Origin: Verrucomicrobiota bacterium
GTDB taxonomy: Bacteria > Verrucomicrobiota > Verrucomicrobiia > Limisphaerales > JACDHS01
DNA length: 64,000 nt
Assembly: GCA_013820875.1 (NCBI GenBank)
Contig: JACDHS010000003.1
Location: forward strand, 26,952 to 90,951
Direction: 5' to 3'
Below the pieces are notes generated by a model. The model was not told the origin of the DNA. It saw only the letters and a program-made list of their open reading frames with translations, and made no database searches. This document shows positions 16,028 to 57,296 of the stretch, one piece after another. Each line of letters starts with the position of its first letter. Within the stretch, counting starts at the first letter, position 1. The translations under genes and the position numbers were made by a program.

Positions 16028-16171
16028 GAGAAACCACAGATGGACACAGATAAACACAGATGAAGATCAAGTTCGCCCTGGCAGTATAATCCTTCACAGG
16101 ATTTCCGGTTTACCTTCACAGAATTTTCCCTGCTTTCGAATCTGTGTTCATCTGTGTCCATCTGTGGTTTC
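16028..16171. repeat. REP-like inverted-repeat element, copy 1, with (CACAGATGRA)n arms
   Basis: The left arm GAGAAACCACAGATGGACACAGATAAACACAGATGAAG (16028-16063) pairs with the right arm ...ATCTGTGTTCATCTGTGTCCATCTGTGGTTTC (16137-16171). The element fills the tyrA-aroA intergenic space. Confidence 0.9.
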
Positions 16172-26000: not shown

Positions 26001-28518
26001 TCAAGACAACGGTGTTCCATCGTTGTATGCGACACGTAATTTCGACGTGACAGTTAATGAAGTGAACGCTGCTCCGGTTCTCACCATTCCAACCAGCAGC
26101 ACAAAGACTCACCTGGTTGCTGGTTTTGACGACACAGATGAAGAGCCGAACGGTGTTATTCTGTTCCGTCACCCGCTCTATTCCTCTACCTCGAGCGCAT
26201 TCCTCGATGCCACTCCGAACAGCAGTGTGCTGGCGACCTCGCCGGACTTCCCGCTGCCGGACGACAATACCAGTCTCAAAGTGCTGCACACCTCGTTCAG
26301 CTTCAAGACTGGCACCGTTAATCCATGGCTGCGTCTGACCACCTACACGCTGAACACAAACCATGCGTTCGTTCCGAATCCAACGATCAACTTGAATTCG
26401 AAACTGCGCTTCAAGGTATATACCGACAAATCCATCAAGTTGGCCCTCGCTGTTCGCGAAACCGGCATCAATGTGCCGATTGGTTTCAATGGTGGCGTTT
26501 CCGGAGCCATTGAGTACGTCGGTGTTTCCGGCAAGCAAGCCAATGGTTGCCCCATCCCGACCCGCACCATCGGTGCTGGAGCATGGACCACGGTAGAATT
26601 CAACATGCCGAGCGAGCAATGCGCTAACTTCGTCAACGGCAACGGTGTCCTCGCAAGTGGCAAAGGCACAATCGAACAAGTAGCCATTGTCCCTAACGGC
26701 GGCATGGGCGCTTACAACGTTTACTTCGATGATTTCGAAGTGGTTGAAACCAGCAGCACCTTCACTGTCGATACCCTGGCGAACATTTCGTTCCAGGCCA
26801 CGGCGACCGACGTGGATCGTGTCGGCGGAGCAGAGCAAACGCTCGGCTTCACCCTCGACGCTGGCGCTCCGGCTAATGCTGAAATCGACGAAATTACAGG
26901 TGTGTTTACCTGGACTCCCACGCCGGAAGAAAGCCCGAGCACAAATGTCATCAGCATCCGTGTGACTGACGATGGAGTGCCGAACCTCAGTGATGTGAAA
27001 AACGTCACGATCATCGTGAACAAAGTGAACACTGCTCCTTACTTCGGCAACCTGCCGGAAGAGGAGATATATCTCGGCAACGGCGAAGCCTTGAGCTGGG
27101 ATGTGGATGCAGAGGATGATGACAACCCTGGCGACACCTTGAGCTTCTCGCTTTTGGTCAAGCCGACTGGCGCGACGATTGATGCCGATGGGGTGATCAG
27201 TTGGACGGCTCCATCAAGTGGCAGCAGCACCAACACCTTCACGGTGCGTGTGCAGGACAACGGTTCACCGGTGCTCTTCACCGATTCATCGTTCCTCGTC
27301 ATTGTCACCCCGGCCAACACAGCCCCTGTGTTGAACCTGGGCGCAGCGCGTATCACTGAAGCAGTGGTGAACTATGAAAGCTTCACTAATGGAACGCCGA
27401 ACGAACAAGTCATGTTCCGCAAACCATCGTTCTCCAGCACGACCACGAACTTCCTCGACATGGGTGTGACAAATTACACCACCGTGACGACCTCGTTCCC
27501 GGCTGGAAACGCCAACGCTGGCAGCAAAGTGCTCCGTGCCCAATGGTCCTTCAAGACCGGCATCAGCGATTACTGGCTGCGTCTGACCACCACCGATTCG
27601 GCCTTCCTGCCGAATACGACCATCAACGCCAGTGAGCGGTTGAAGTTCGATATCTACACCACCAAGACTCTGAAGGTGGGCGTCGGTATCCGCGAAACCG
27701 GCACCTCGGCTGAAAACGGCGCCAACGGCGGCATCAGTGGCGCCATCGAATACGTCGGTGTGGGCAGCAAAGTCGGCTCAACGCCTGTGCCGACCCGCAC
27801 GGTCAGCGCTGGTACCTGGACCACGCTTGAATTCGACCTGCCAAACGAGCCATGCCAAACCCTCACGGGTAACAGCATTCTCGCAGCAGGCCAACAGGTG
27901 CTCGAGCACCTCATCCTCAAGGGTGAAGGCGGGACAGGCGTTTACACTGTTTACGTCGATAACTTCCAGGTTGTGGAAGTTATTCCAACGCTGAACAGCG
28001 ACGAAGACACTGGTTTGGTTGAGTTCACAATGAAGACCGGCAGCACGCTGACCTTCACGGCGAGCGCAACGGATACCGACGCAGTGACATTCAGCCTCGA
28101 GCCGGGAGCTCCGACTGGCGCAAGCCTCAACAGCGGCACCGGTGCCTTTAGCTGGACGCCATCTGTTGGCGACGCTGGCACGAGTGCCAACATCGGCATC
28201 TCTGTCGAAGACAATCCAACAAACGGCGGACTCAAGAAGCAGGATGCGGATGAGTTCGTTGTTCACGTGGTCGCTGACGGTGTTGGAACACAAAATCCAA
28301 CAGTCAACGGCGAAGTGAGCGCAGGTGAAGTTGTTGCCTTGACCTGGGATTCAATCCCCGGCGCGACTTACAATGTGCAAGCCAAAGGAGCTGACGGCGT
28401 ATGGACTACTGTCCAGACGGTGGTAGCCGAAGGCGCCACATCGTCAACCGAAGTCAGCAGCGACGAAGACCTCACCTATCGTGTGGTTGAAGTCAGCGGT
28501 GCTGGTAGCGACGAATAA
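23074..28518 (+). CDS. Giant exoprotein: N-terminal PGRP/Amidase_2 N-acetylmuramoyl-L-alanine amidase, 3 FN3 domains, many cadherin-like/Ig-like domains and 3 copies of a novel ~200-aa module
   Basis: I set the start at ATG 23074 (MKNKPITRYRLSGMLAVALPVLFFAADAMA, a signal peptide). Amidase motifs are IVHHTAGNEYS, GWSDIGYHFTVD and STACPG. The FN3 signatures are L.W.DNS..E.GF.(I/V)ER...Y.D.GL....YYYRV, three times. The FSWTPT motifs match Ig-like repeats. Confidence 0.85.
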   Translation: MKNKPITRYRLSGMLAVALPVLFFAADAMAAKGPQPSICTRSCWGARAPKSGASQMSGLTRAIVHHTAGNEYSTTGLTSSKSYQRGIQNLHMNANGWSDIGYHFTVDKFGNIFEGRSGSMSSLPRGAHDGYNYNSFGFTCMGYYHTPKNNALTSAQKTSLEKVIAWRMPSSWSASGSGSYNGKTVGYLDGHYKVKSTACPGSIIINQLGSIRTGVNAKKNGGSTPSGPSSLTATAYSTTRIDLKWVDNSGIETGFKIERSLSSGSGFSQIATVGANVKAYSSTGLAAGTRYYYRVRAYNATGNSPYSNTANTTTKQTIPAAPSALTANATSDKQINLAWTDNSNNESGFRVLRSTDGTTFAQIATVGVNVKTYSNTGLTGNRKYYYRVQSYNSAGNSAVSNTANDTTAPQAPTSLVVSTVSGTANWNKLQLSWVDNSSAETGFKVERGTAAAGPFTQIATTGAGVATYQDTGLAATTTYYYRVRSYNANGNSTYTPVVSRATPNAPPVLGAIGNKTVAAGSTLAFTATASDPNGTTTTTTWQNFTSFGHNTPNETVLFRRPSNSATTSAFLTTATNYTRVVSNGPSAWGSGNKSILAGWTFKTGMANYWIRLNTFNTATNPNPTIQLDQRLRFKVYANKAIKVGLGIRETGTTAAYGANGGTTGAIEWVGVTNVVSGAPIPNKSVAAATSATLTFNIPFEAQAGFTGNGVVPQTPTKGVMEHLVIKGEGGTGAYTVWFDDFQVIQANNNAFTLVGAPAGASIGYRNGKFSWTPTTGQVGTHTFTVRVTDALGGVDTESITVTVTGTGNAAPVLANISNKTVNEGSNLSFTATATDANAGQTLTFSLLSGAPSGASITGTGNFSWTPTEAQGPGSYPISVRVTDNGSPVSNDTKTFTVTVNEVNSAPVLATISNVSINEGSSLNVTASATDSDIPANTITYSLENAPDGMTINASSGAISWTPGEDDDGVAQVTVRAQDNGVPSLYATRNFDVTVNEVNAAPVLTIPTSSTKTHLVAGFDDTDEEPNGVILFRHPLYSSTSSAFLDATPNSSVLATSPDFPLPDDNTSLKVLHTSFSFKTGTVNPWLRLTTYTLNTNHAFVPNPTINLNSKLRFKVYTDKSIKLALAVRETGINVPIGFNGGVSGAIEYVGVSGKQANGCPIPTRTIGAGAWTTVEFNMPSEQCANFVNGNGVLASGKGTIEQVAIVPNGGMGAYNVYFDDFEVVETSSTFTVDTLANISFQATATDVDRVGGAEQTLGFTLDAGAPANAEIDEITGVFTWTPTPEESPSTNVISIRVTDDGVPNLSDVKNVTIIVNKVNTAPYFGNLPEEEIYLGNGEALSWDVDAEDDDNPGDTLSFSLLVKPTGATIDADGVISWTAPSSGSSTNTFTVRVQDNGSPVLFTDSSFLVIVTPANTAPVLNLGAARITEAVVNYESFTNGTPNEQVMFRKPSFSSTTTNFLDMGVTNYTTVTTSFPAGNANAGSKVLRAQWSFKTGISDYWLRLTTTDSAFLPNTTINASERLKFDIYTTKTLKVGVGIRETGTSAENGANGGISGAIEYVGVGSKVGSTPVPTRTVSAGTWTTLEFDLPNEPCQTLTGNSILAAGQQVLEHLILKGEGGTGVYTVYVDNFQVVEVIPTLNSDEDTGLVEFTMKTGSTLTFTASATDTDAVTFSLEPGAPTGASLNSGTGAFSWTPSVGDAGTSANIGISVEDNPTNGGLKKQDADEFVVHVVADGVGTQNPTVNGEVSAGEVVALTWDSIPGATYNVQAKGADGVWTTVQTVVAEGATSSTEVSSDEDLTYRVVEVSGAGSDE

Positions 28519-48190: not shown

Positions 48191-48300
48191 GGGAAACCAC
48201 AGATAGGCACAGATGAACACAGATATTTCAGCAGAAAAGCATTCACCTGTAGGGTGATCACCATTTTCTTCACAAACCCTTCTTATCTGTGTTCATCTGC
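48191..48300. repeat. REP-like inverted-repeat element, copy 2 (right arm truncated)
   Basis: The left arm is GGGAAACCACAGATAGGCACAGATGAACACAGAT (48191-48224). The right arm is only ATCTGTGTTCATCTG (48285-48299). Confidence 0.8.
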
Positions 48301-52087: not shown

Positions 52088-52238
52088 GAGAAACCACAGA
52101 TGGACACAGATGAACACAGATAGGAACAGGAAAACCCTTTGGGAAATTGTTGCGAATTCCACCACTCAACAGTCAACGAACTACAACGCGACCGCCCCGC
52201 CTTTATCTGTGTCCATCTGTGTTCATCTGTGGTTTCTC
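52088..52238. repeat. REP-like inverted-repeat element, copy 3 (most complete)
   Basis: GAGAAACCACAGATGGACACAGATGAACACAGATAGG (52088-52124) pairs with ATCTGTGTCCATCTGTGTTCATCTGTGGTTTCTC (52205-52238). It lies 30 nt downstream of the FtsK-like gene stop. Confidence 0.9.
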
Positions 52239-52267: not shown

Positions 52268-55200
52268 TTAACTCGTAAGCACCGCTGCTTCAATCCAGTC
52301 ACCACCCGGCAACGCATAAGGCCGAAACGTTTCCAAATGCCCTTCCTGCTCGTGAAAAAAGAGGGCGCGATGCATCCCGAGTGTGCTGGCTTTTGGATTA
52401 TCAATCAGGCTGGCGGAATCGTTGGCACTCATTTGAAAGACGATCCGCATTCCGAACTCGCTCAATGCCTTTTTGCTAAGGAACCGGTTCACGTTATTAT
52501 AGCTGTCGCAACTGACCACCACATGGATGCCGAGGCTGGCGCCTTCACAGATCAGTTTGTTGAGTTGAGTGGAAGGCGACGCGCTTTCTGAATCGTCACT
52601 GGAGAAGCTGAAATCCTCCTCATAGCGGAGTTTGGAAAACTTCTGCAACCCCTGGATGAACAGGAAGATGGCCGGGGCTTGGGCCACTTGTTCATCTTCC
52701 TGACGACGTTTCATTTCTGCCGCCAGTTCATTCATGATTGAGGCCATGTCACCGCTCTTTGCGATCTCCACCTTGGCTGAGGTAGTGCGCACGACGCGTT
52801 CCAGGTAAGCGCGGTGGGTCGAACCAGTCGGATTGCTATCGAACACAATGAACCGTGCTCCGCCGCTCGGGCGTTGGGCGGTCAGCGCAATCAGTCCGAG
52901 GGAATACATAGCGAGGACCGCTTCTTCATTTTGCCCGACAAGCAGAAGATGATTTCCGCTCTGCCGCTGGAACACAACCTCGGTCGGCCCTTTAATGGCG
53001 TTCGGCGCACCGAGCCAGAAACGGAGTGGCGCTGTCGATGGAATGAAGTCTCCCCGGAGCAATGCCTGCAACGGCTCGTTCTCCCGCACATCCGCGGGGG
53101 CGTTGCCTTCGAACACAACCGGCGATCTATAAACCTTTCCAGTTTTAACAGCCTCTGCCTGCACGCGTTCGAGAAAACTGTCGCGGACACCGTCCGGTAG
53201 CCAAACGGTTTGGAACGGACTGTTGCCATGCATGGCGCCGGCTTCGTCATTGTAAATGCCTTCACCGGGACGGGAGAGCAAACGAGGCGCGGGATTGCTG
53301 TCGTCCATGATGAGGTAGGCATCCGCTTCATTGCACTGCAAAGCGATGCGAATGACCATTTGCCCAATCGTCGTCCGCGCCATGGTGTAAGCACCGCCCA
53401 ATGTCTGCGACCCCAAAATGACGTGAATCCCAAAAGCGCGGCCCTGTCGCACTATGCGATCCAGCAACACCGACGCACCCTGCGAAATTTTATCGTCTTC
53501 GACAAAAAATTCCTGGAACTCGTCAATGAGGAGAAGCGAACGCGGAATCGGTTCTGTTCCACCCGCTCTCTTGTAGCCGGCAATATCCTGAACGCCCAGT
53601 TTGCGGAACAGTTCGCCGCGCCGGCGCAGTTCATCATCCAGACGTTGGAGAACGCTCAAACCAAACTCTCGATCGCTTTCAATTGCGATGACCCGCGCAT
53701 GCGGCAGTTTCTTCGTGGCGTAACATTTAAATTCCACGCCCTTCTTGAAATCGATCAGGTAAAACTCCACCTGCTCCGGGCTGCACCAGAGCGCGAGATT
53801 CGTGATGAGCACGTGAAACAAAGTGGATTTGCCGGAACCAGTCTTGCCCGCGAGCAATGCGTGTTGCCGCGTCCCTCTTCCGATTTCCAGATACTGCAGT
53901 TTCGTCGCGCCGGTGCGGCCAATCGGGACACGCAATTCAGTCGTCGTATCTTCGCTCCAGATGTCGGAGTCCTCAGGAGCCACATGTGAGAAAGGAACTT
54001 CGATCCGGTTGGAATCACGATTCTGCACGCCAACACGGTTGATGAATTCGGTCGCAATCTCTGCGCTCGGCGGTGTGTCCAGAACGATGTTCGTCCCGGG
54101 CAATTGTCTACCCGTGAAGAACAGCCGATCCTCTTTGGCATTGATGCAGACGCTGCTCTTGCGCAGTTCTTCAGGAATGAAATCGGATGGCAACGTGTGG
54201 TTCGCGTTCCAATGGATCAGCGTATAAACCCCGCAACGCGCACCGCTCGCCGCAATACTCAGCAGGCGTCTGGCAGCGATGTCCGTGAAGTTCGTTGGAA
54301 AATCCGCAACGACGAGGAAATGATATTTCTCCGCAATATTGCCAGCCTGTTCATTGTATTCCGCAATGGTGGCGTATTCATTGCGCAGGTACATCTGAAT
54401 GACCTTTTCCATGTGCTCATTCAATTCCCCGAGCCGCTGTTCGATCTGTCCGGCCTGCGTCCAAATCCGGTTGTTGATCAAATGCTCGGCGTAATCCGAC
54501 AGGTGCATGATGCCAGCAAAGTTCTGTCCCAGCCCAACGGGATCCACGATGGTGAAACTGACCCGCCCAGGGGCTGCGACAGAGAGCAGGCGCAACACCG
54601 CATTGTTCAGAGCTGCGGTGGCAGCATCATGCCCCGTTTCGGTGGTTTCAATGAGAAGGGATCCCTCATTCGGATATGCCAAAGTGACCGGCAGCGAAAA
54701 ACGCGTCGCACCGGCCAGCGAAAGTCGAGGGTCTTTGGGCAACCCACCGGCGAGCTTTTCTACATCCACCTGCCAGCGTCCCACCTGTGTCGCGTGGGCG
54801 AATCGTTCCGGGGATTTCCAGTTCGTGAGAGTCGGAGAAGTCCAGGGAGGAAACAGTTGTTCGGCCGCGGCATTCAATTCCTCAATACGAGCATAAACAG
54901 GCGCCACCAACGTCTTCCATTCCGATTCCATTTCCTGCCAGCGGCTTTGCGAATCTGCGTTCAACCGCGCTTCTCTTTCAGCGTAATCTCTCGTGATCGC
55001 ACTTTTCCGCTCGTCCGCCTGCTGTTGCAGTTTTTCCAGTTCCACCGTGTGCTCCTGTTGCAGGCGAGATTGTTTCGTTTCGGAAATCTCCGCATTCCTG
55101 GCGTTGGCACGCGCTGCTTTGGCGTTGAGTTCGCACGGACGCGATTCCCTCAATCGCGCGGCTTCATCCACCGCTGCGGACCAATCTTGTTCGATGCGTT

Positions 55201-56140
55201 TAATGCGATCCTCGAACTCGTGGACGGTTCTTTCGTAATCGTTCTTGTAACGCTGCTCGGCCTTCTCCCTGCAAACTTCCACCAACTTGCGCCCTTTGGT
55301 CAGTGCGCCAGCGATCCCCCGCGCCTGCGAATCACCCTGGCGCCGGCTGAACAGGTGCAAAAGAAATCCAAGAACCAACAAACCTCCGGCAGAACCAATC
55401 GCATGTTGATAAGTGAACGAATCAATCCCGAAGTGCTGCAACAGAGGAACGGCGGGAATCTGCAGCAGCACCAATATCCCGAGCAACAGACGTCGTTTGA
55501 AAATGTGCGGGAGTAATGATCGCCGGAACCGGCTCAAATCATCCTGCGCTTTGTTCAGCAGGTTGCGCAACTCGACGAATAGCTCGTTTTCATCGCGGGA
55601 AAGTTCCGCTTCGCCCAGTCGTGGCGCGGTCGCGAGCAACCGCTGGAAGGCGCCGTAACCTCGAAAGGCGCTCTTCGCCTTTTCCTCCATTTGCGACAAC
55701 TTGTCCTCTTCCGCAAAAACGTCCTGGGAGAAAGTCTCACACGTTTTCTGCACAGTCGCCAAACCGGTGTCGCGATTGCGATGTGACTGCATCGTATCCA
55801 TCTGCAACTTCGTTTTGCGCCCACCCTCCCGGTCATCGATTTTCTTGAGCGCCTGCTTTTGGCTCCTCCACTGCGCCTTGGCCAGCCACGCTTTACGCGT
55901 GGTGAATTTCGCTTCCAGGCGTGTTTTGGTTTCCGCAAACGTTTCCCTGGCCTGCGCCATTTCCGCGGACAAACGCGCGGCCGATTCCTCCGATGCCTGG
56001 TCACGCCGTTGTTGTTCGATGTTGAACTTGCCGCGGAATTCCTGGTTCAACTTCTCTTCCCGCGCGGTGAAATCGCGCACGAACTCCCTCAGTTGCTCGA
56101 CGAGCGTTATTGTTTGTGCGACCCCAAAATGTTTACTCAC
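52268..56140 (-). CDS. Membrane FtsK/SpoIIIE-family ATPase (EssC/EccC-like, T7SS-type) with long coiled-coil regions
   Basis: 1290 aa. About 210 aa of charged helical sequence are followed by 2 TM helices (LLLGILVLLQIPAVPLL..., AGGLLVLGFLLHLF) and ~200 aa more coiled coil. Three P-loop-like modules follow. Only the middle one has Walker A LLAGKTGSGKST and Walker B SLLLIDEFQEF. Confidence 0.85.
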   Translation of the reverse strand: MSKHFGVAQTITLVEQLREFVRDFTAREEKLNQEFRGKFNIEQQRRDQASEESAARLSAEMAQARETFAETKTRLEAKFTTRKAWLAKAQWRSQKQALKKIDDREGGRKTKLQMDTMQSHRNRDTGLATVQKTCETFSQDVFAEEDKLSQMEEKAKSAFRGYGAFQRLLATAPRLGEAELSRDENELFVELRNLLNKAQDDLSRFRRSLLPHIFKRRLLLGILVLLQIPAVPLLQHFGIDSFTYQHAIGSAGGLLVLGFLLHLFSRRQGDSQARGIAGALTKGRKLVEVCREKAEQRYKNDYERTVHEFEDRIKRIEQDWSAAVDEAARLRESRPCELNAKAARANARNAEISETKQSRLQQEHTVELEKLQQQADERKSAITRDYAEREARLNADSQSRWQEMESEWKTLVAPVYARIEELNAAAEQLFPPWTSPTLTNWKSPERFAHATQVGRWQVDVEKLAGGLPKDPRLSLAGATRFSLPVTLAYPNEGSLLIETTETGHDAATAALNNAVLRLLSVAAPGRVSFTIVDPVGLGQNFAGIMHLSDYAEHLINNRIWTQAGQIEQRLGELNEHMEKVIQMYLRNEYATIAEYNEQAGNIAEKYHFLVVADFPTNFTDIAARRLLSIAASGARCGVYTLIHWNANHTLPSDFIPEELRKSSVCINAKEDRLFFTGRQLPGTNIVLDTPPSAEIATEFINRVGVQNRDSNRIEVPFSHVAPEDSDIWSEDTTTELRVPIGRTGATKLQYLEIGRGTRQHALLAGKTGSGKSTLFHVLITNLALWCSPEQVEFYLIDFKKGVEFKCYATKKLPHARVIAIESDREFGLSVLQRLDDELRRRGELFRKLGVQDIAGYKRAGGTEPIPRSLLLIDEFQEFFVEDDKISQGASVLLDRIVRQGRAFGIHVILGSQTLGGAYTMARTTIGQMVIRIALQCNEADAYLIMDDSNPAPRLLSRPGEGIYNDEAGAMHGNSPFQTVWLPDGVRDSFLERVQAEAVKTGKVYRSPVVFEGNAPADVRENEPLQALLRGDFIPSTAPLRFWLGAPNAIKGPTEVVFQRQSGNHLLLVGQNEEAVLAMYSLGLIALTAQRPSGGARFIVFDSNPTGSTHRAYLERVVRTTSAKVEIAKSGDMASIMNELAAEMKRRQEDEQVAQAPAIFLFIQGLQKFSKLRYEEDFSFSSDDSESASPSTQLNKLICEGASLGIHVVVSCDSYNNVNRFLSKKALSEFGMRIVFQMSANDSASLIDNPKASTLGMHRALFFHEQEGHLETFRPYALPGGDWIEAAVLTS

Positions 56141-56345
56141 AGTCTCTCCTGATTTTATTTGTGACTTTCTCCAATTGATCGATCACGGACATCGCGGTGT
56201 CCACACTGGACAACAGTTCTTCGATGTACTTTTTCTCGAACTCCAGGGCCTTGCTGTCGTTCCAATGATACTTGGTTTCCTGCCATTGCCGGGCAAGTTC
56301 CTTGGTAACCGCAGCGAGGCTTGCCCGGCTGCTATTGAGGCTCAT
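56133..56345 (-). CDS. Small WXG100-like helical protein (W-x-D variant), 70 aa
   Basis: I set the start at ATG 56343-56345 (MSLNSSRASL...). The upstream extension in the track is Arg/Pro-rich read-through of the preceding gene. The motif HWNDSKALEFE matches the W-x-G-x-x-A-x-x-F pattern with D in place of G. The gene overlaps both neighbours (14 nt and 8 nt). Confidence 0.6.
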   Translation of the reverse strand: MSLNSSRASLAAVTKELARQWQETKYHWNDSKALEFEKKYIEELLSSVDTAMSVIDQLEKVTNKIRRDCE

Positions 56346-56883
56346 TGGTCTCCTTGGTAGCCGGTTGCGCCGGGGGTGGCGTGGCCTCGGTTGATTCTTT
56401 GTGCGATTCACCTGATGCCGACCGGTAGTCCTGCAATGTCTCAATGACTTTGGTTAAATAAGCAATGCTGTGGGGCAGTTCGCTGGCTAGGACAGTATGC
56501 AAATGTCCCAGTTGTTTAGCGAGCGGCTCAAGTTGACTGCTCACTTCACGATTCCAACGTTTCACCATCCTTAATTTTACTTCAGCTTCGTCGAAAGCAA
56601 TCTTCGCTTTGCTCACTGCCTGGCGTTCGGCGACCGTGACGTCCCGCAAGCTGGACATCTGCGCGCTGAAAAAAGCATTCTGCGCTTCGTCGAGGCGATG
56701 CTTGCGGCGTCGCAGTTCATGTTCCCAATGAAGCCGCTGCTCATTCTCGACCCACATCCGGGTGCGTGCGACGTCGGTATTTATTTCTTCAAGGGTAGGG
56801 CGCGCTTTGCTGAGATAGATGATCAGGCTATTCCGAAATGATTCGATAGCTTCGACGGATGTTACTTTGGCGCGGTTGGACAT
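56332..56883 (-). CDS. 183-aa helical/coiled-coil protein of unknown family with a Pro/Thr/Glu-rich tail
   Basis: This ORF lies between the two WXG-like genes and has a heptad-like charged sequence. I recognised no TM segment and no motif. Confidence 0.6.
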   Translation of the reverse strand: MSNRAKVTSVEAIESFRNSLIIYLSKARPTLEEINTDVARTRMWVENEQRLHWEHELRRRKHRLDEAQNAFFSAQMSSLRDVTVAERQAVSKAKIAFDEAEVKLRMVKRWNREVSSQLEPLAKQLGHLHTVLASELPHSIAYLTKVIETLQDYRSASGESHKESTEATPPPAQPATKETNEPQ

Positions 56884-56900
56884 GTTAAAGAAAAAAGTTT

Positions 56901-57015
56901 AACCACGAATGAACAAAATGATTGAGAAGTTGCAGGGTTGAATTGTTGGATTGTTACATGGTGAGCATGTAACGATTCAACCAAGTAACCGGCCCATTCG
57001 TGTTCATTCGTGGTT
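56901..57015. repeat. Nested palindrome inside the T7SS-like operon (REP-like, related to the CACAGATGRA family)
   Basis: AACCACGAATGAACA (56901-56915) pairs with TGTTCATTCGTGGTT (57001-57015), 15 bp perfect. The inner stems are GGTTGAAT/ATTCAACC and GTTACATG/CATGTAAC. Confidence 0.9.
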
Positions 57016-57023
57016 TTAAAAGT

Positions 57024-57296
57024 TTATCGTTGATTAAGATACTCTTCGATTCGCTGCGCTTTACGCAACAGGTAAGGGGTGTGCTGGTTTGATACTTCCA
57101 CAAATTTCTTCAGCGCCTTGAGCGTCTGTTTGAATTCTTCCGAGAATTTCGTGTGTTCCTGGTCCTGCCATGTTTCCCCCAGAGAAGCGAACCTGGCCTG
57201 GAGCGAGGCCATCCGGTTTTGGACATCCATATTGAACCGTTTCAATTCTTCCGCGAAGCGCCGCACTTCCTCGGGATCCATGATGGCTTGAGACAT
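57024..57296 (-). CDS. WXG100-like protein (W-x-D variant), 90 aa
   Basis: At 90 aa it is the right size for a helix-turn-helix hairpin. The central motif is LGETWQDQEHTKFSEEF. It is the first gene of a cluster that ends in the FtsK/SpoIIIE ATPase. Confidence 0.7.
   Translation of the reverse strand: MSQAIMDPEEVRRFAEELKRFNMDVQNRMASLQARFASLGETWQDQEHTKFSEEFKQTLKALKKFVEVSNQHTPYLLRKAQRIEEYLNQR

Follow-up and report, generated by a model that had tools for sequence, protein, structure and literature searches.

A four-gene operon carried by the verrucomicrobial contig JACDHS010000003.1 (assembly GCA_013820875.1) is interpreted here, with moderate confidence and by analogy with characterised machines, as a minimal, self-contained exporter of its own hairpin proteins related to type VII secretion systems (T7SS). 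The stretch analysed, hereafter the window, comprises 64,000 nucleotides (nt; positions 26,952 to 90,951 of the contig), and its minus strand carries four co-directional open reading frames (ORFs), coding for a WXG100 protein of 90 residues, a helical protein of 183 residues, a protein of 70 residues and a membrane FtsK/SpoIIIE ATPase of 1290 residues. In window coordinates the genes are:

57024-57296, minus strand, gene of the 90-residue WXG100 protein, ATG start
56332-56883, minus strand, gene of the 183-residue protein, ATG start
56133-56345, minus strand, gene of the 70-residue protein, ATG start lying inside a 103-residue ORF with a TTG start (56133-56444)
52268-56140, minus strand, gene of the 1290-residue ATPase, GTG start

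The WXG100 gene is separated from the 183-residue gene by 140 nt. The remaining genes overlap, by 14 nt between the 183- and 70-residue genes (56332-56345) and by 8 nt between the 70-residue and ATPase genes (56133-56140), the 70-residue gene being translationally coupled to its neighbours on either side. Independent public gene calls on an identical sequence (JAITZQ012140273.1, GCA_020064125.1) delimit products of 90, 183, 70 and 1290 residues and, together with the ORF coordinates, agree with the gene sizes and overlaps reported in an initial annotation made from the bare sequence of the window.

The ATPase displays a modular organisation, in which a membrane hairpin and a long helical stalk precede three P-loop-fold domains:

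55511-56140, minus strand, ATPase residues 1-210, cytoplasmic helical N-terminal region with no FHA or other Pfam domain
55346-55489, minus strand, ATPase residues 218-265, two transmembrane (TM) helices with a loop of ~10 residues between them
54821-55345, minus strand, ATPase residues 266-440, long amphipathic helical stalk, predicted by AlphaFold2 as a continuous helix at lower confidence
53969-54820, minus strand, ATPase residues 441-724, first P-loop-fold domain, degenerate, assigned from the alignment and from a predicted alpha/beta domain in the AlphaFold2 model
53171-53968, minus strand, ATPase residues 725-990, catalytic FtsK/SpoIIIE domain, equivalent to D1 of EccC/EssC
52271-53170, minus strand, ATPase residues 991-1290, third P-loop-fold domain, degenerate, a candidate substrate-docking domain by analogy with D3 of EccC/EssC

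Walker motifs are found only in the middle domain, where Walker A reads GKTGSGKST (765-773) and Walker B LLLIDEFQ (869-876), both invariant in the family. The Walker A position of the first domain is occupied by PPG[KR]xxFTIIDP, with no GK[ST], and that of the third by VGQxEEA, with no acidic Walker B, the flanking motifs being degenerate in 16 of 16 aligned members. Similarly, TM hydropathy peaks at residues 218-236 and 247-265 recur in all 16, and basic residues flank both cytoplasmic sides of the hairpin, which by the positive-inside rule suggests that the N- and C-termini of the protein both lie in the cytoplasm. No Pfam domain, FHA included, was detected in residues 1-440. The two helical regions flanking the TM hairpin (1-205 and 262-435) resemble each other (hhalign probability 91.5%, E 9e-7, 134 columns), and the profile of the second matches the amphipathic repeats of apolipoproteins A-I and A-IV (1e-5 to 1e-4); the likeness between the two regions could be a duplication or merely coiled-coil composition.

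As judged from both sequence profiles and predicted fold, the ATPase is closer to EccC and EssC of the T7SS than to FtsK/TraB-type translocases, a point on which the initial reading had been made to depend. It matches PF01580 at 9.5e-34 and, among NCBIfam models, scores 114 bits with TIGR03924 (EccCa), 111 bits with TIGR03928 (EssC) and 101 bits with TIGR03925 (EccCb, the alignment spanning residues 731-1265), against 28 bits with the FtsK model NF007615. The curated equivalog cut-offs of the three T7SS models lie at 346-778 bits and the ATPase stays below all of them; it is thus a relative of the EccC and EssC families rather than a member. Against PDB sequences, the ATPase family profile retrieves T. 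curvata EccC 4nh0 (9e-39, 136 bits), EccC5 (8.5e-31), B. subtilis YukB (1.2e-25) and FtsK (6e-10, 41 bits). The middle domain aligns with D1 of the T7SS proteins (residues 275-461 of 4nh0, 494-652 of EccC5 and 653-844 of YukB), and the best domain matches within actinobacterial EccC proteins also fall in D1. The AlphaFold2 model of the ATPase covers residues 261-1290 (predicted local distance difference test score, pLDDT, 84.1; predicted template modelling score, pTM, 0.68). Foldseek aligns it with EccC 4nh0 over 970 columns and all three domains (E 5.6e-32), with the EccC D2-D3/signal-peptide complex 4n1a (1e-22) and with the EssC structures 4lya (D2-D3, 4e-19) and 5fv0 (2e-18), against matches to FtsK (2e-12) and TcpA (1e-10) that each extend over one domain only. 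The FtsK gamma (PF09397), alpha and 4TM domains are absent from the ATPase (PF09397, PF13491 and PF17854 tested) and present in the true FtsK P0054.

The 90-residue protein is, from its profile matches, a bona fide WXG100 protein of an HP0062-like subfamily. It scores 38.4 bits with the Pfam WXG100 model PF06013 (curated cut-off 27.3) and 8.6e-8 with TIGR03930. A family profile built from 54 orthologues and run against PDB sequences identifies H. pylori HP0062 (3fx7/2gts) as the closest solved relative (E 2e-13, full length), followed by entries deposited as 'secreted protein EsxB' (e.g. 4j42, 1e-9) and 'virulence factor EsxA' (2vs0, 2.7e-6), which bears out the WXG100-like character first assigned to the protein. 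In the HP0062 dimer two helical hairpins pair into a four-helix bundle, and the turn motif is 'WRD' (PMC3397514). At the position of this motif the window protein has W43-Q-D45, not W-x-G, and the two proteins thus have the same W-x-D turn. The family is always 90 residues long, with 43-80% identity between Verrucomicrobiota and Planctomycetota and a mean column identity of 64%. Its C-terminal motif ...RKAxRIEEYLxQR is conserved and Y86 is invariant, the window protein ending in Y86-L-N-Q-R. Public data hold at least 7864 clusters of the family at 90% identity, and the NCBI name of the protein is already 'WXG100 family type VII secretion target'.

The 70-residue protein, which was also suspected of being WXG100-like, is on several converging profile comparisons a divergent, N-terminally shortened WXG100 paralogue. 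Its landmarks are W21, W28-x-D30, F36 and a C-terminal D-C-E. The window protein by itself has no Pfam or NCBIfam match, PF06013 included. The WXG100 relationship becomes apparent at the level of the family: a jackhmmer search seeded with the 70-residue protein recruits the 90-residue family at ~1e-14 and the reverse search recruits the 70-residue protein; hhalign aligns the two families around the W-x-D turn (probability 66%, E 5.6e-5); 14 of 56 members of the 70-residue family match PF06013 independently; and the best PDB profile match of the family is 2vs0, deposited as 'virulence factor EsxA'. The hidden Markov model (HMM) of the 70-residue family gives real 90-residue sequences a median score of 18.9 bits, whereas shuffled ones stand at -0.1 (maximum 8.3) and reversed ones at 4.4. 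The gene is the partner most tightly linked to that of the ATPase (61 loci). An Asp-Cys-Glu at the extreme C-terminus is nearly conserved in the family; a 76-residue ORF of a Caballeronia plasmid described below ends in ...DYGCAQ.

The 183-residue protein was predicted by AlphaFold2 (36 homologues; pLDDT 84.6, pTM 0.61) as a single long helical hairpin, with helices at residues 7-76 and 84-159 and a Pro-rich, disordered tail at 160-183. The hairpin is estimated at ~100 Å in the model, and helix 2 is closed by the invariant Y153, followed by x4-5-P. As first noted, the protein belongs to no recognised family: it has no Pfam, NCBIfam, PADLOC or PDB-sequence match beyond coiled-coil noise, 51 relatives have no Pfam match either, and Foldseek against the PDB returns only generic long hairpins (chemoreceptor signalling domains, HP0958, HlyD; best E 0.02). 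A match to LXG (PF04740), EspB or PE/PPE was sought by sequence and fold and none was found. Thus, of the likeness to WXG100/EsxA-B, EspB and LXG proteins that had been raised for the three small proteins, the WXG100 relationship holds for the 90- and 70-residue proteins, and the 183-residue protein matches none of these families. What it appears to have in common with LXG and other long-hairpin T7SS substrates is, in the predicted model, a fold class only, a long helix-turn-helix with a flexible tail. The HMM of the 183-residue family scores the 90-residue WXG sequences slightly above controls (median 8.3 bits; shuffled sequences 0.2, reversed ones 4.2), and in the WXG proteins of two plasmids its match splits into two pieces, helix 1 and helix 2; this is a hint, and no more, that the 183-residue protein might be an elongated WXG-type hairpin. 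The gene lies directly between the WXG100 and 70-residue genes in 56 loci, and the family comprises 2434 representative clusters in public data.

The four genes form a unit that recurs in the same order and on the same strand far beyond chance. A protein search returned ~43 near-full-length or full-length ATPase relatives, none with a label outside the Planctomycetes-Verrucomicrobia-Chlamydiae (PVC) group, the next best matches being actinobacterial EccC proteins at ~110 bits. A locus scan with one genome per GTDB species returned 80 ATPase loci, nearly all from Verrucomicrobiota (45-57% identity) or Planctomycetota (34-51%); the outliers are Ca. Electronema, cyanobacteria, an Anaerolineae metagenome-assembled genome (MAG) and MAGs with doubtful labels. 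By phmmer and jackhmmer, the 90-, 183- and 70-residue genes lie upstream of the ATPase gene in 55-61 loci, with strand and order preserved, and all three are present in about 50 of the roughly 61 PVC loci with sufficient upstream DNA. The block is therefore kept across two phyla, which answers the question of its conservation that the initial annotation had raised. Even the gene junctions are similar: three verrucomicrobial loci (L005, L017, L041) display the same 8-nt overlap of the 70-residue and ATPase genes and 4-nt overlaps of the 183- and 70-residue genes. A Singulisphaera-like chromosome and a 2-Mb verrucomicrobial contig carry the same four genes amid unrelated housekeeping genes, and the cassette broadly follows the taxonomy of its hosts.

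Further conserved components were sought by all-against-all ORF clustering of 82 loci, and no other family occurred in more than 8 loci; apparent extra gene clusters were rejected as antisense shadow ORFs or as synteny among five closely related genomes. The Pfam families of EccB, EccD, EccE and mycosin were not found within 10 kb on either side of the cassette in the window locus and the contexts of two relatives, and across the 82 loci no conserved neighbour resembled EssA, EssB, EsaA or a YukD-like EsaB, so that the absence of these T7SS components, claimed for the window from the outset, extends to the flanks and the clustered loci. Minority PVC loci without adjoining 90- and 183-residue genes have an AI-2E transporter, Rho, a HEAT-repeat protein, a phosphodiesterase, T2SS-F or AcrB encoded upstream. 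Larger ORFs upstream of the 70-residue gene in L044, L057 and L065 were considered as toxin fusions and rejected, being those of the AI-2E transporter, Rho and the HEAT-repeat protein. In two cyanobacterial MAG loci (L077:3232-7642 and L078:7971-12517) the ATPase gene comes first and is followed by three WXG100 paralogues (94, 97 and 184-192 residues) and further uncharacterised genes; no homologue of the 183-residue protein was found at either. In some Planctomycetes a Ser/Thr kinase replaces or extends the N-terminal region of the ATPase, as in the fusion protein P0031 from the Singulisphaera-like chromosome (LR594584.1, L090:10001-15004), and the cassettes at L017, L018, L041, L069 and L072 have kinase genes no more than a few kb away. 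These recurrent kinase links, fused or nearby, recall the FHA domains and the EssB pseudokinase of the Bacillota-type T7SSb.

Two plasmids carry cassettes of related layout and provide the clearest indication of what the position of the 183-residue gene may encode. On pNHP190012_1 of Helicobacter sp. NHP19-012 (L087:4758-9160) the genes are a WXG protein of 89 residues, a protein of 340 residues, a SMI1/KNR4 (SUKH) protein, a 77-residue ORF and the ATPase. The 340-residue protein combines a helical N-domain of ~230 residues with a C-terminal WHH/colicin-DNase HNH nuclease (PF14414 1.1e-11; PF12639 1e-8) and, to judge from these domains, represents a classical polymorphic toxin, with the SUKH gene behind it as its immunity gene. 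The Helicobacter cassette is in itself a candidate locus for T7SS-like delivery of a toxin in a diderm epsilonproteobacterium. On pSBC2-5 of Caballeronia sp. SBC2 the order is a WXG protein of 89 residues, a 436-residue protein with a helical N-half, a 113-residue ORF, a 76-residue ORF and the ATPase, and this cassette is embedded among vWA, PP2C, Ser/Thr kinase (TerY-P; L088:12573-13919), CARF and AAA genes. Both plasmid cassettes share with those of PVC bacteria the order of WXG gene, middle gene or genes, ORF of 76-77 residues and three-domain FtsK-like ATPase; their WXG proteins are 33-39% identical to the 90-residue window protein and their ATPases match the family profile at 3.5e-78 and 5e-132. 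In contrast to the PVC cassettes, the middle gene is larger and, in Helicobacter, ends in a nuclease effector domain and is accompanied by SUKH immunity, the ATPases are shorter (823 and 927 residues) and without the long N-terminal region, and the genes lie on plasmids or in a conflict island. The ORFs of 76-77 residues were considered as homologues of the PVC 70-residue protein, and no homology was detected.

Since the same slot holds an HNH toxin and its immunity protein in the Helicobacter cassette, the slot of the 183-residue gene probably encodes cargo; and since its occupants elsewhere have a helical N-domain, one of them with a toxin, this type of cassette can be argued to handle protein export in diderm hosts. 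The hallmark of the 183-residue family, L-x-A-Y-x4-P, aligns with 'ALNAYLATNP' of the Caballeronia middle protein. The 183-residue protein is a probable cargo or co-substrate, or an adaptor. From the helical-N-domain proteins that occupy its slot in Helicobacter and Caballeronia, and the nuclease toxin with immunity in Helicobacter, the PVC protein is best read as a toxin-less cargo or as a structural or exported hairpin.

Beyond these two cassettes, signs of mobility are scarce. Among 72,556 plasmids, 2 carry a close relative of the 90-residue protein, and distant ATPase relatives occur on 4 viral contigs, where no WXG gene was detected. The three-domain relatives on the IMG/VR viral-class contigs L083 (4059-7541) and L084 (3996-7400) have 26-28% identity, and the PVC HMMs find no WXG gene near them. 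The window cassette itself is chromosomal, with a PIG-L deacetylase as upstream neighbour and ruvA, a DUF374 acyltransferase and glucan phosphorylase downstream, genes of housekeeping type, and the G+C content is flat across the region, with no shift in base composition. A LolA gene a few kb from the cassette fits a diderm envelope, and NCBI annotates the host as a Verrucomicrobia bacterium MAG; the initial view of a diderm PVC host is supported.

As an exporter the cassette could operate as follows. The ATPase would be anchored in the cytoplasmic membrane by its two helices, with both ends in the cytoplasm, and by analogy with EccC/EssC and FtsK would assemble into a ring. Only the D1-like middle domain is, by its Walker motifs, competent to hydrolyse ATP, and the degenerate flanking domains would serve as scaffold and substrate dock in the manner of the EccC DUF and D3. 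The three small proteins are helical, devoid of signal peptides and tightly co-encoded, two of them being of WXG100 type, and the helical hairpin is the fold class of every known T7SS substrate. The 90- and 70-residue proteins would probably act as small partner or targeting subunits bundling with the 183-residue long hairpin. The C-terminal ends, ...EEYLxQR of the 90-residue protein and the invariant Tyr with the flexible tail of the 183-residue protein, might then be presented to the C-terminal ATPase domain, with the hairpin complex docking on this degenerate domain as EsxB does on EccC D3 in 4n1a, and ATP hydrolysis would drive passage across the inner membrane. A precedent for one long and two or three small helical partners is found in the abstracts of PMC9600955, PMC10653861 and bioRxiv 10.64898/2026.08.24.746431; the pre-secretion complexes LXG-Lap, EsaD-EsxB/C/D and EatA-TapA1/2 are mirrored by the 183+90+70 composition.

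Several observations weigh against export. No outer-membrane component is linked to the cassette and no other membrane component is conserved across the loci, and the known T7SSa and T7SSb machines need several membrane components (EccB/D/E, or EssA/B and EsaA). No precedent is known for a protein channel built solely from a ring of two-helix protomers, and no member of this clade is known to export protein. The canonical YxxxD/E signal was not found in the 183-residue family, in which the +4 position after the invariant Y153 is A, S or P. The PVC 183-residue protein has no toxin domain and no adjoining immunity gene, and hhalign comparisons of its family with the WXG family (4%), the Helicobacter toxin (4%) and the Caballeronia protein (17%) are not significant. 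The 64% column identity of the 90-residue protein over two phyla is unusually high for a secreted effector and agrees with a core or housekeeping role. Finally, three loci (L044, L057, L065) have only the 70-residue and ATPase genes; three others (L003, L071, L074) have the ATPase gene alone. The partners missing at such minority loci may be encoded elsewhere in those genomes.

A minor yet appreciable likelihood falls to the main rival, a non-secretory machine of T7SS descent, in which the ATPase is membrane-associated and assembles, remodels or tethers the hairpins at the inner membrane as cytoplasmic regulators or scaffold subunits; its task could, for example, be to organise the envelope or membranes or to serve a PVC stress response. 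The absence of conserved accessory membrane and outer-membrane components would be expected of such a machine, and the high conservation and fixed length of the 90-residue protein suit a housekeeping subunit more than an effector. The chromosomal location, the housekeeping flanks (ruvA, acyltransferase, PIG-L deacetylase) and the flat base composition point the same way, as do the two long, amphipathic, apolipoprotein-like helical regions that flank the TM hairpin, and the recurrent linkage or fusion to Ser/Thr kinases suggests signalling. However, every homology signal points to export machinery, the C-terminal ATPase domain matches the substrate-binding D2-D3 modules of EccC/EssC, and the toxin-immunity pair in related cassettes makes sense only if the toxin leaves the cell or is delivered.

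A bolder form of the export model, which is to be regarded as unlikely, takes the cassette as an autonomous translocon of the simplest kind. The two-helix ATPase ring would itself be the inner-membrane channel, and the ~100 Å hairpin of the 183-residue protein, once exported together with the two WXG proteins, would form an oligomer that spans the periplasm or lies on the surface and so overcomes the outer-membrane barrier, an idea analogous to proposals for mycobacterial EspB and EspC. Were this true, the cassette would be the minimal form of the T7SS and would give diderm PVC bacteria a new secretion route.

Membership of a conflict or defence module of the TerY-P-triad type, as part of an anti-phage or stress-response island rather than of general secretion, is quite improbable. 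It is prompted by the Caballeronia cassette amid its vWA, PP2C, Ser/Thr kinase, CARF and AAA genes, by the paralogous set of H. pylori, which lies in a TerY-P island read as stress- or phage-response machinery (PMC4978471), and by the PADLOC models SspH and mads8, which match the ATPase P-loop domain. However, these last matches cover the generic FtsK P-loop only, at 87 bits against 114 for the EccC model, and a defence assignment by PADLOC was rejected on this ground. In addition, no vWA, PP2C, CARF or nuclease partner is conserved beside the PVC cassettes, whose flanks are of housekeeping type, and the counts on mobile elements are low, with WXG90-like genes on 2 plasmids only and viral-contig relatives that are distant and lack a detectable WXG neighbour. 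A DNA translocase of the FtsK/TraB/TcpA type, engaged in segregation or conjugation and only incidentally linked to WXG genes, is highly improbable: the catalytic domain alone scores nearly equally with one FtsK sequence (65 bits) and with EccC D1 (70-82 bits), and the FtsK and TcpA motor domains are significant in Foldseek, but the FtsK-specific domains are missing, the tandem three-domain layout with two degenerate domains is that of EccC/EssC, EccC/EssC outscore FtsK by more than 80 bits in whole-family models, relaxase and Tra genes are absent from the vicinity, and the strict coupling to WXG genes is conserved in ~50-60 loci.

Two REP-like (repetitive extragenic palindromic) elements bracket or interrupt the operon:

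56900-57013, minus strand, REP-like palindrome within the 140 nt that separate the WXG100 and 183-residue genes
52095-52231, minus strand, REP-like long palindrome directly 3' of the ATPase stop codon

The first has perfect 15-nt inverted arms, AACCACGAATGAACA and TGTTCATTCGTGGTT, and an RNA fold of -43.9 kcal/mol (z -6.0 relative to shuffles). It is missing in relatives whose WXG100 and 183-residue genes sit only 3-4 nt apart, and it may act as an intra-operon attenuator or messenger RNA stabiliser. The second has arms of CACAGATGRA decamers and an RNA fold of -84.4 kcal/mol (z -8.8), and probably marks the end of the operon or acts as an RNA stabiliser. Both belong to a REP-like family of tandem CACAGATGRA decamers (variant CACGAATGRA) with 4 sites in the window (16035-16166, 48198-48225, 52095-52231 and 56900-57013), the decamer pattern giving 11 matches against 0.1 expected. 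Scans for sigma-70 promoters and intrinsic terminators returned background levels only.

Relatives of the cassette have been recorded before. Zhang et al. 2012 (Biol Direct 7:18; PMC3482391, Table 1 footnote 6) list solo WXG genes with a distinct YueA-like ATPase in planctomycetes, verrucomicrobia and others, and describe this ATPase as having three HerA/FtsK domains, with the middle one alone active, the sets being called 'mobile versions of T7SS'. The window cassette agrees with this group in its combination of solo WXG gene and ATPase, in Walker motifs confined to the middle of three domains and in its verrucomicrobial and planctomycete hosts, and thus falls within the definition; in contrast to the 'mobile' label, it is chromosomal, has housekeeping flanks and broadly follows taxonomy. 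HP0062 (WXG) and HP0066 (FtsK-like) of H. pylori have likewise been called a minimal T7SS set (PMC4978471). PMC4010439 defines a T7SS generically by an EccC/EssC-type FtsK/SpoIIIE ATPase and a WXG100 substrate, and the cassette has both a WXG100 gene and a membrane-bound, multi-domain ATPase of EccC/EssC lineage.

Compared with the T7SSb, the cassette has the same two-TM ATPase with tandem FtsK-like domains, a D1 motor and C-terminal domains of substrate-binding type, and similarly a conserved small WXG100 gene at the head of the operon and a long hairpin candidate cargo with small helical partners. In contrast, it has no FHA domain, three P-loop-fold domains instead of four, no EssA/EssB/EsaA/EsaB, no LXG Pfam match and a diderm host. 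With the actinobacterial T7SSa/ESX it shares the best ATPase matches in sequence and fold (EccC 4nh0, EccC5 7np7) and a WXG100 hairpin as the presumed substrate, and both face a second membrane without an identified outer channel; it differs from the T7SSa in having no EccB/D/E, no mycosin, no EsxA/EsxB-type pair with YxxxD/E and one active ATPase domain. All three ATPase domains of EccC (D1-D3) are reported to bind nucleotide. Sutcliffe (2011) has been cited by others for a wider distribution of ESX-like genes.

Abstracts on the T7SS, up to a 2026 review, confine it to Actinomycetota and Bacillota. Functional work on a T7SS-like system of PVC or Gram-negative bacteria was sought in the literature and none was found, and no mention of the 183-residue long hairpin or of the 70-residue WXG paralogue was found in searchable literature text. 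The initial annotation had proposed an undescribed T7SS-like system in a diderm PVC bacterium. The T7SS-like PVC module stands, and the claim of novelty gives way to the Zhang et al. footnote, to HP0062/HP0066 and to the existing NCBI name. The T7SS-like pairing of WXG100 with an EssC-type ATPase, and its occurrence in PVC bacteria, were already known at the level of a bioinformatic footnote. Apparently new are the strict conservation, over two phyla, of a self-contained four-gene operon, the cryptic 70-residue WXG paralogue and the 183-residue hairpin in a slot that elsewhere serves for toxins.

The central questions of T7SS biology are the identity of the channel, the recognition and movement of folded helical dimers and the crossing of a second membrane. 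The cassette retains just the ATPase and three hairpin proteins, and it is widespread in two diderm phyla that are abundant in the environment, where it is represented by thousands of sequence clusters. Were it to export protein, it would represent the smallest natural machine of T7SS type, a reductionist model of translocation and an added secretion pathway of PVC bacteria. If no protein is exported, the WXG100/EssC pairing would have a non-secretory role, and the annotation of such gene pairs would change.

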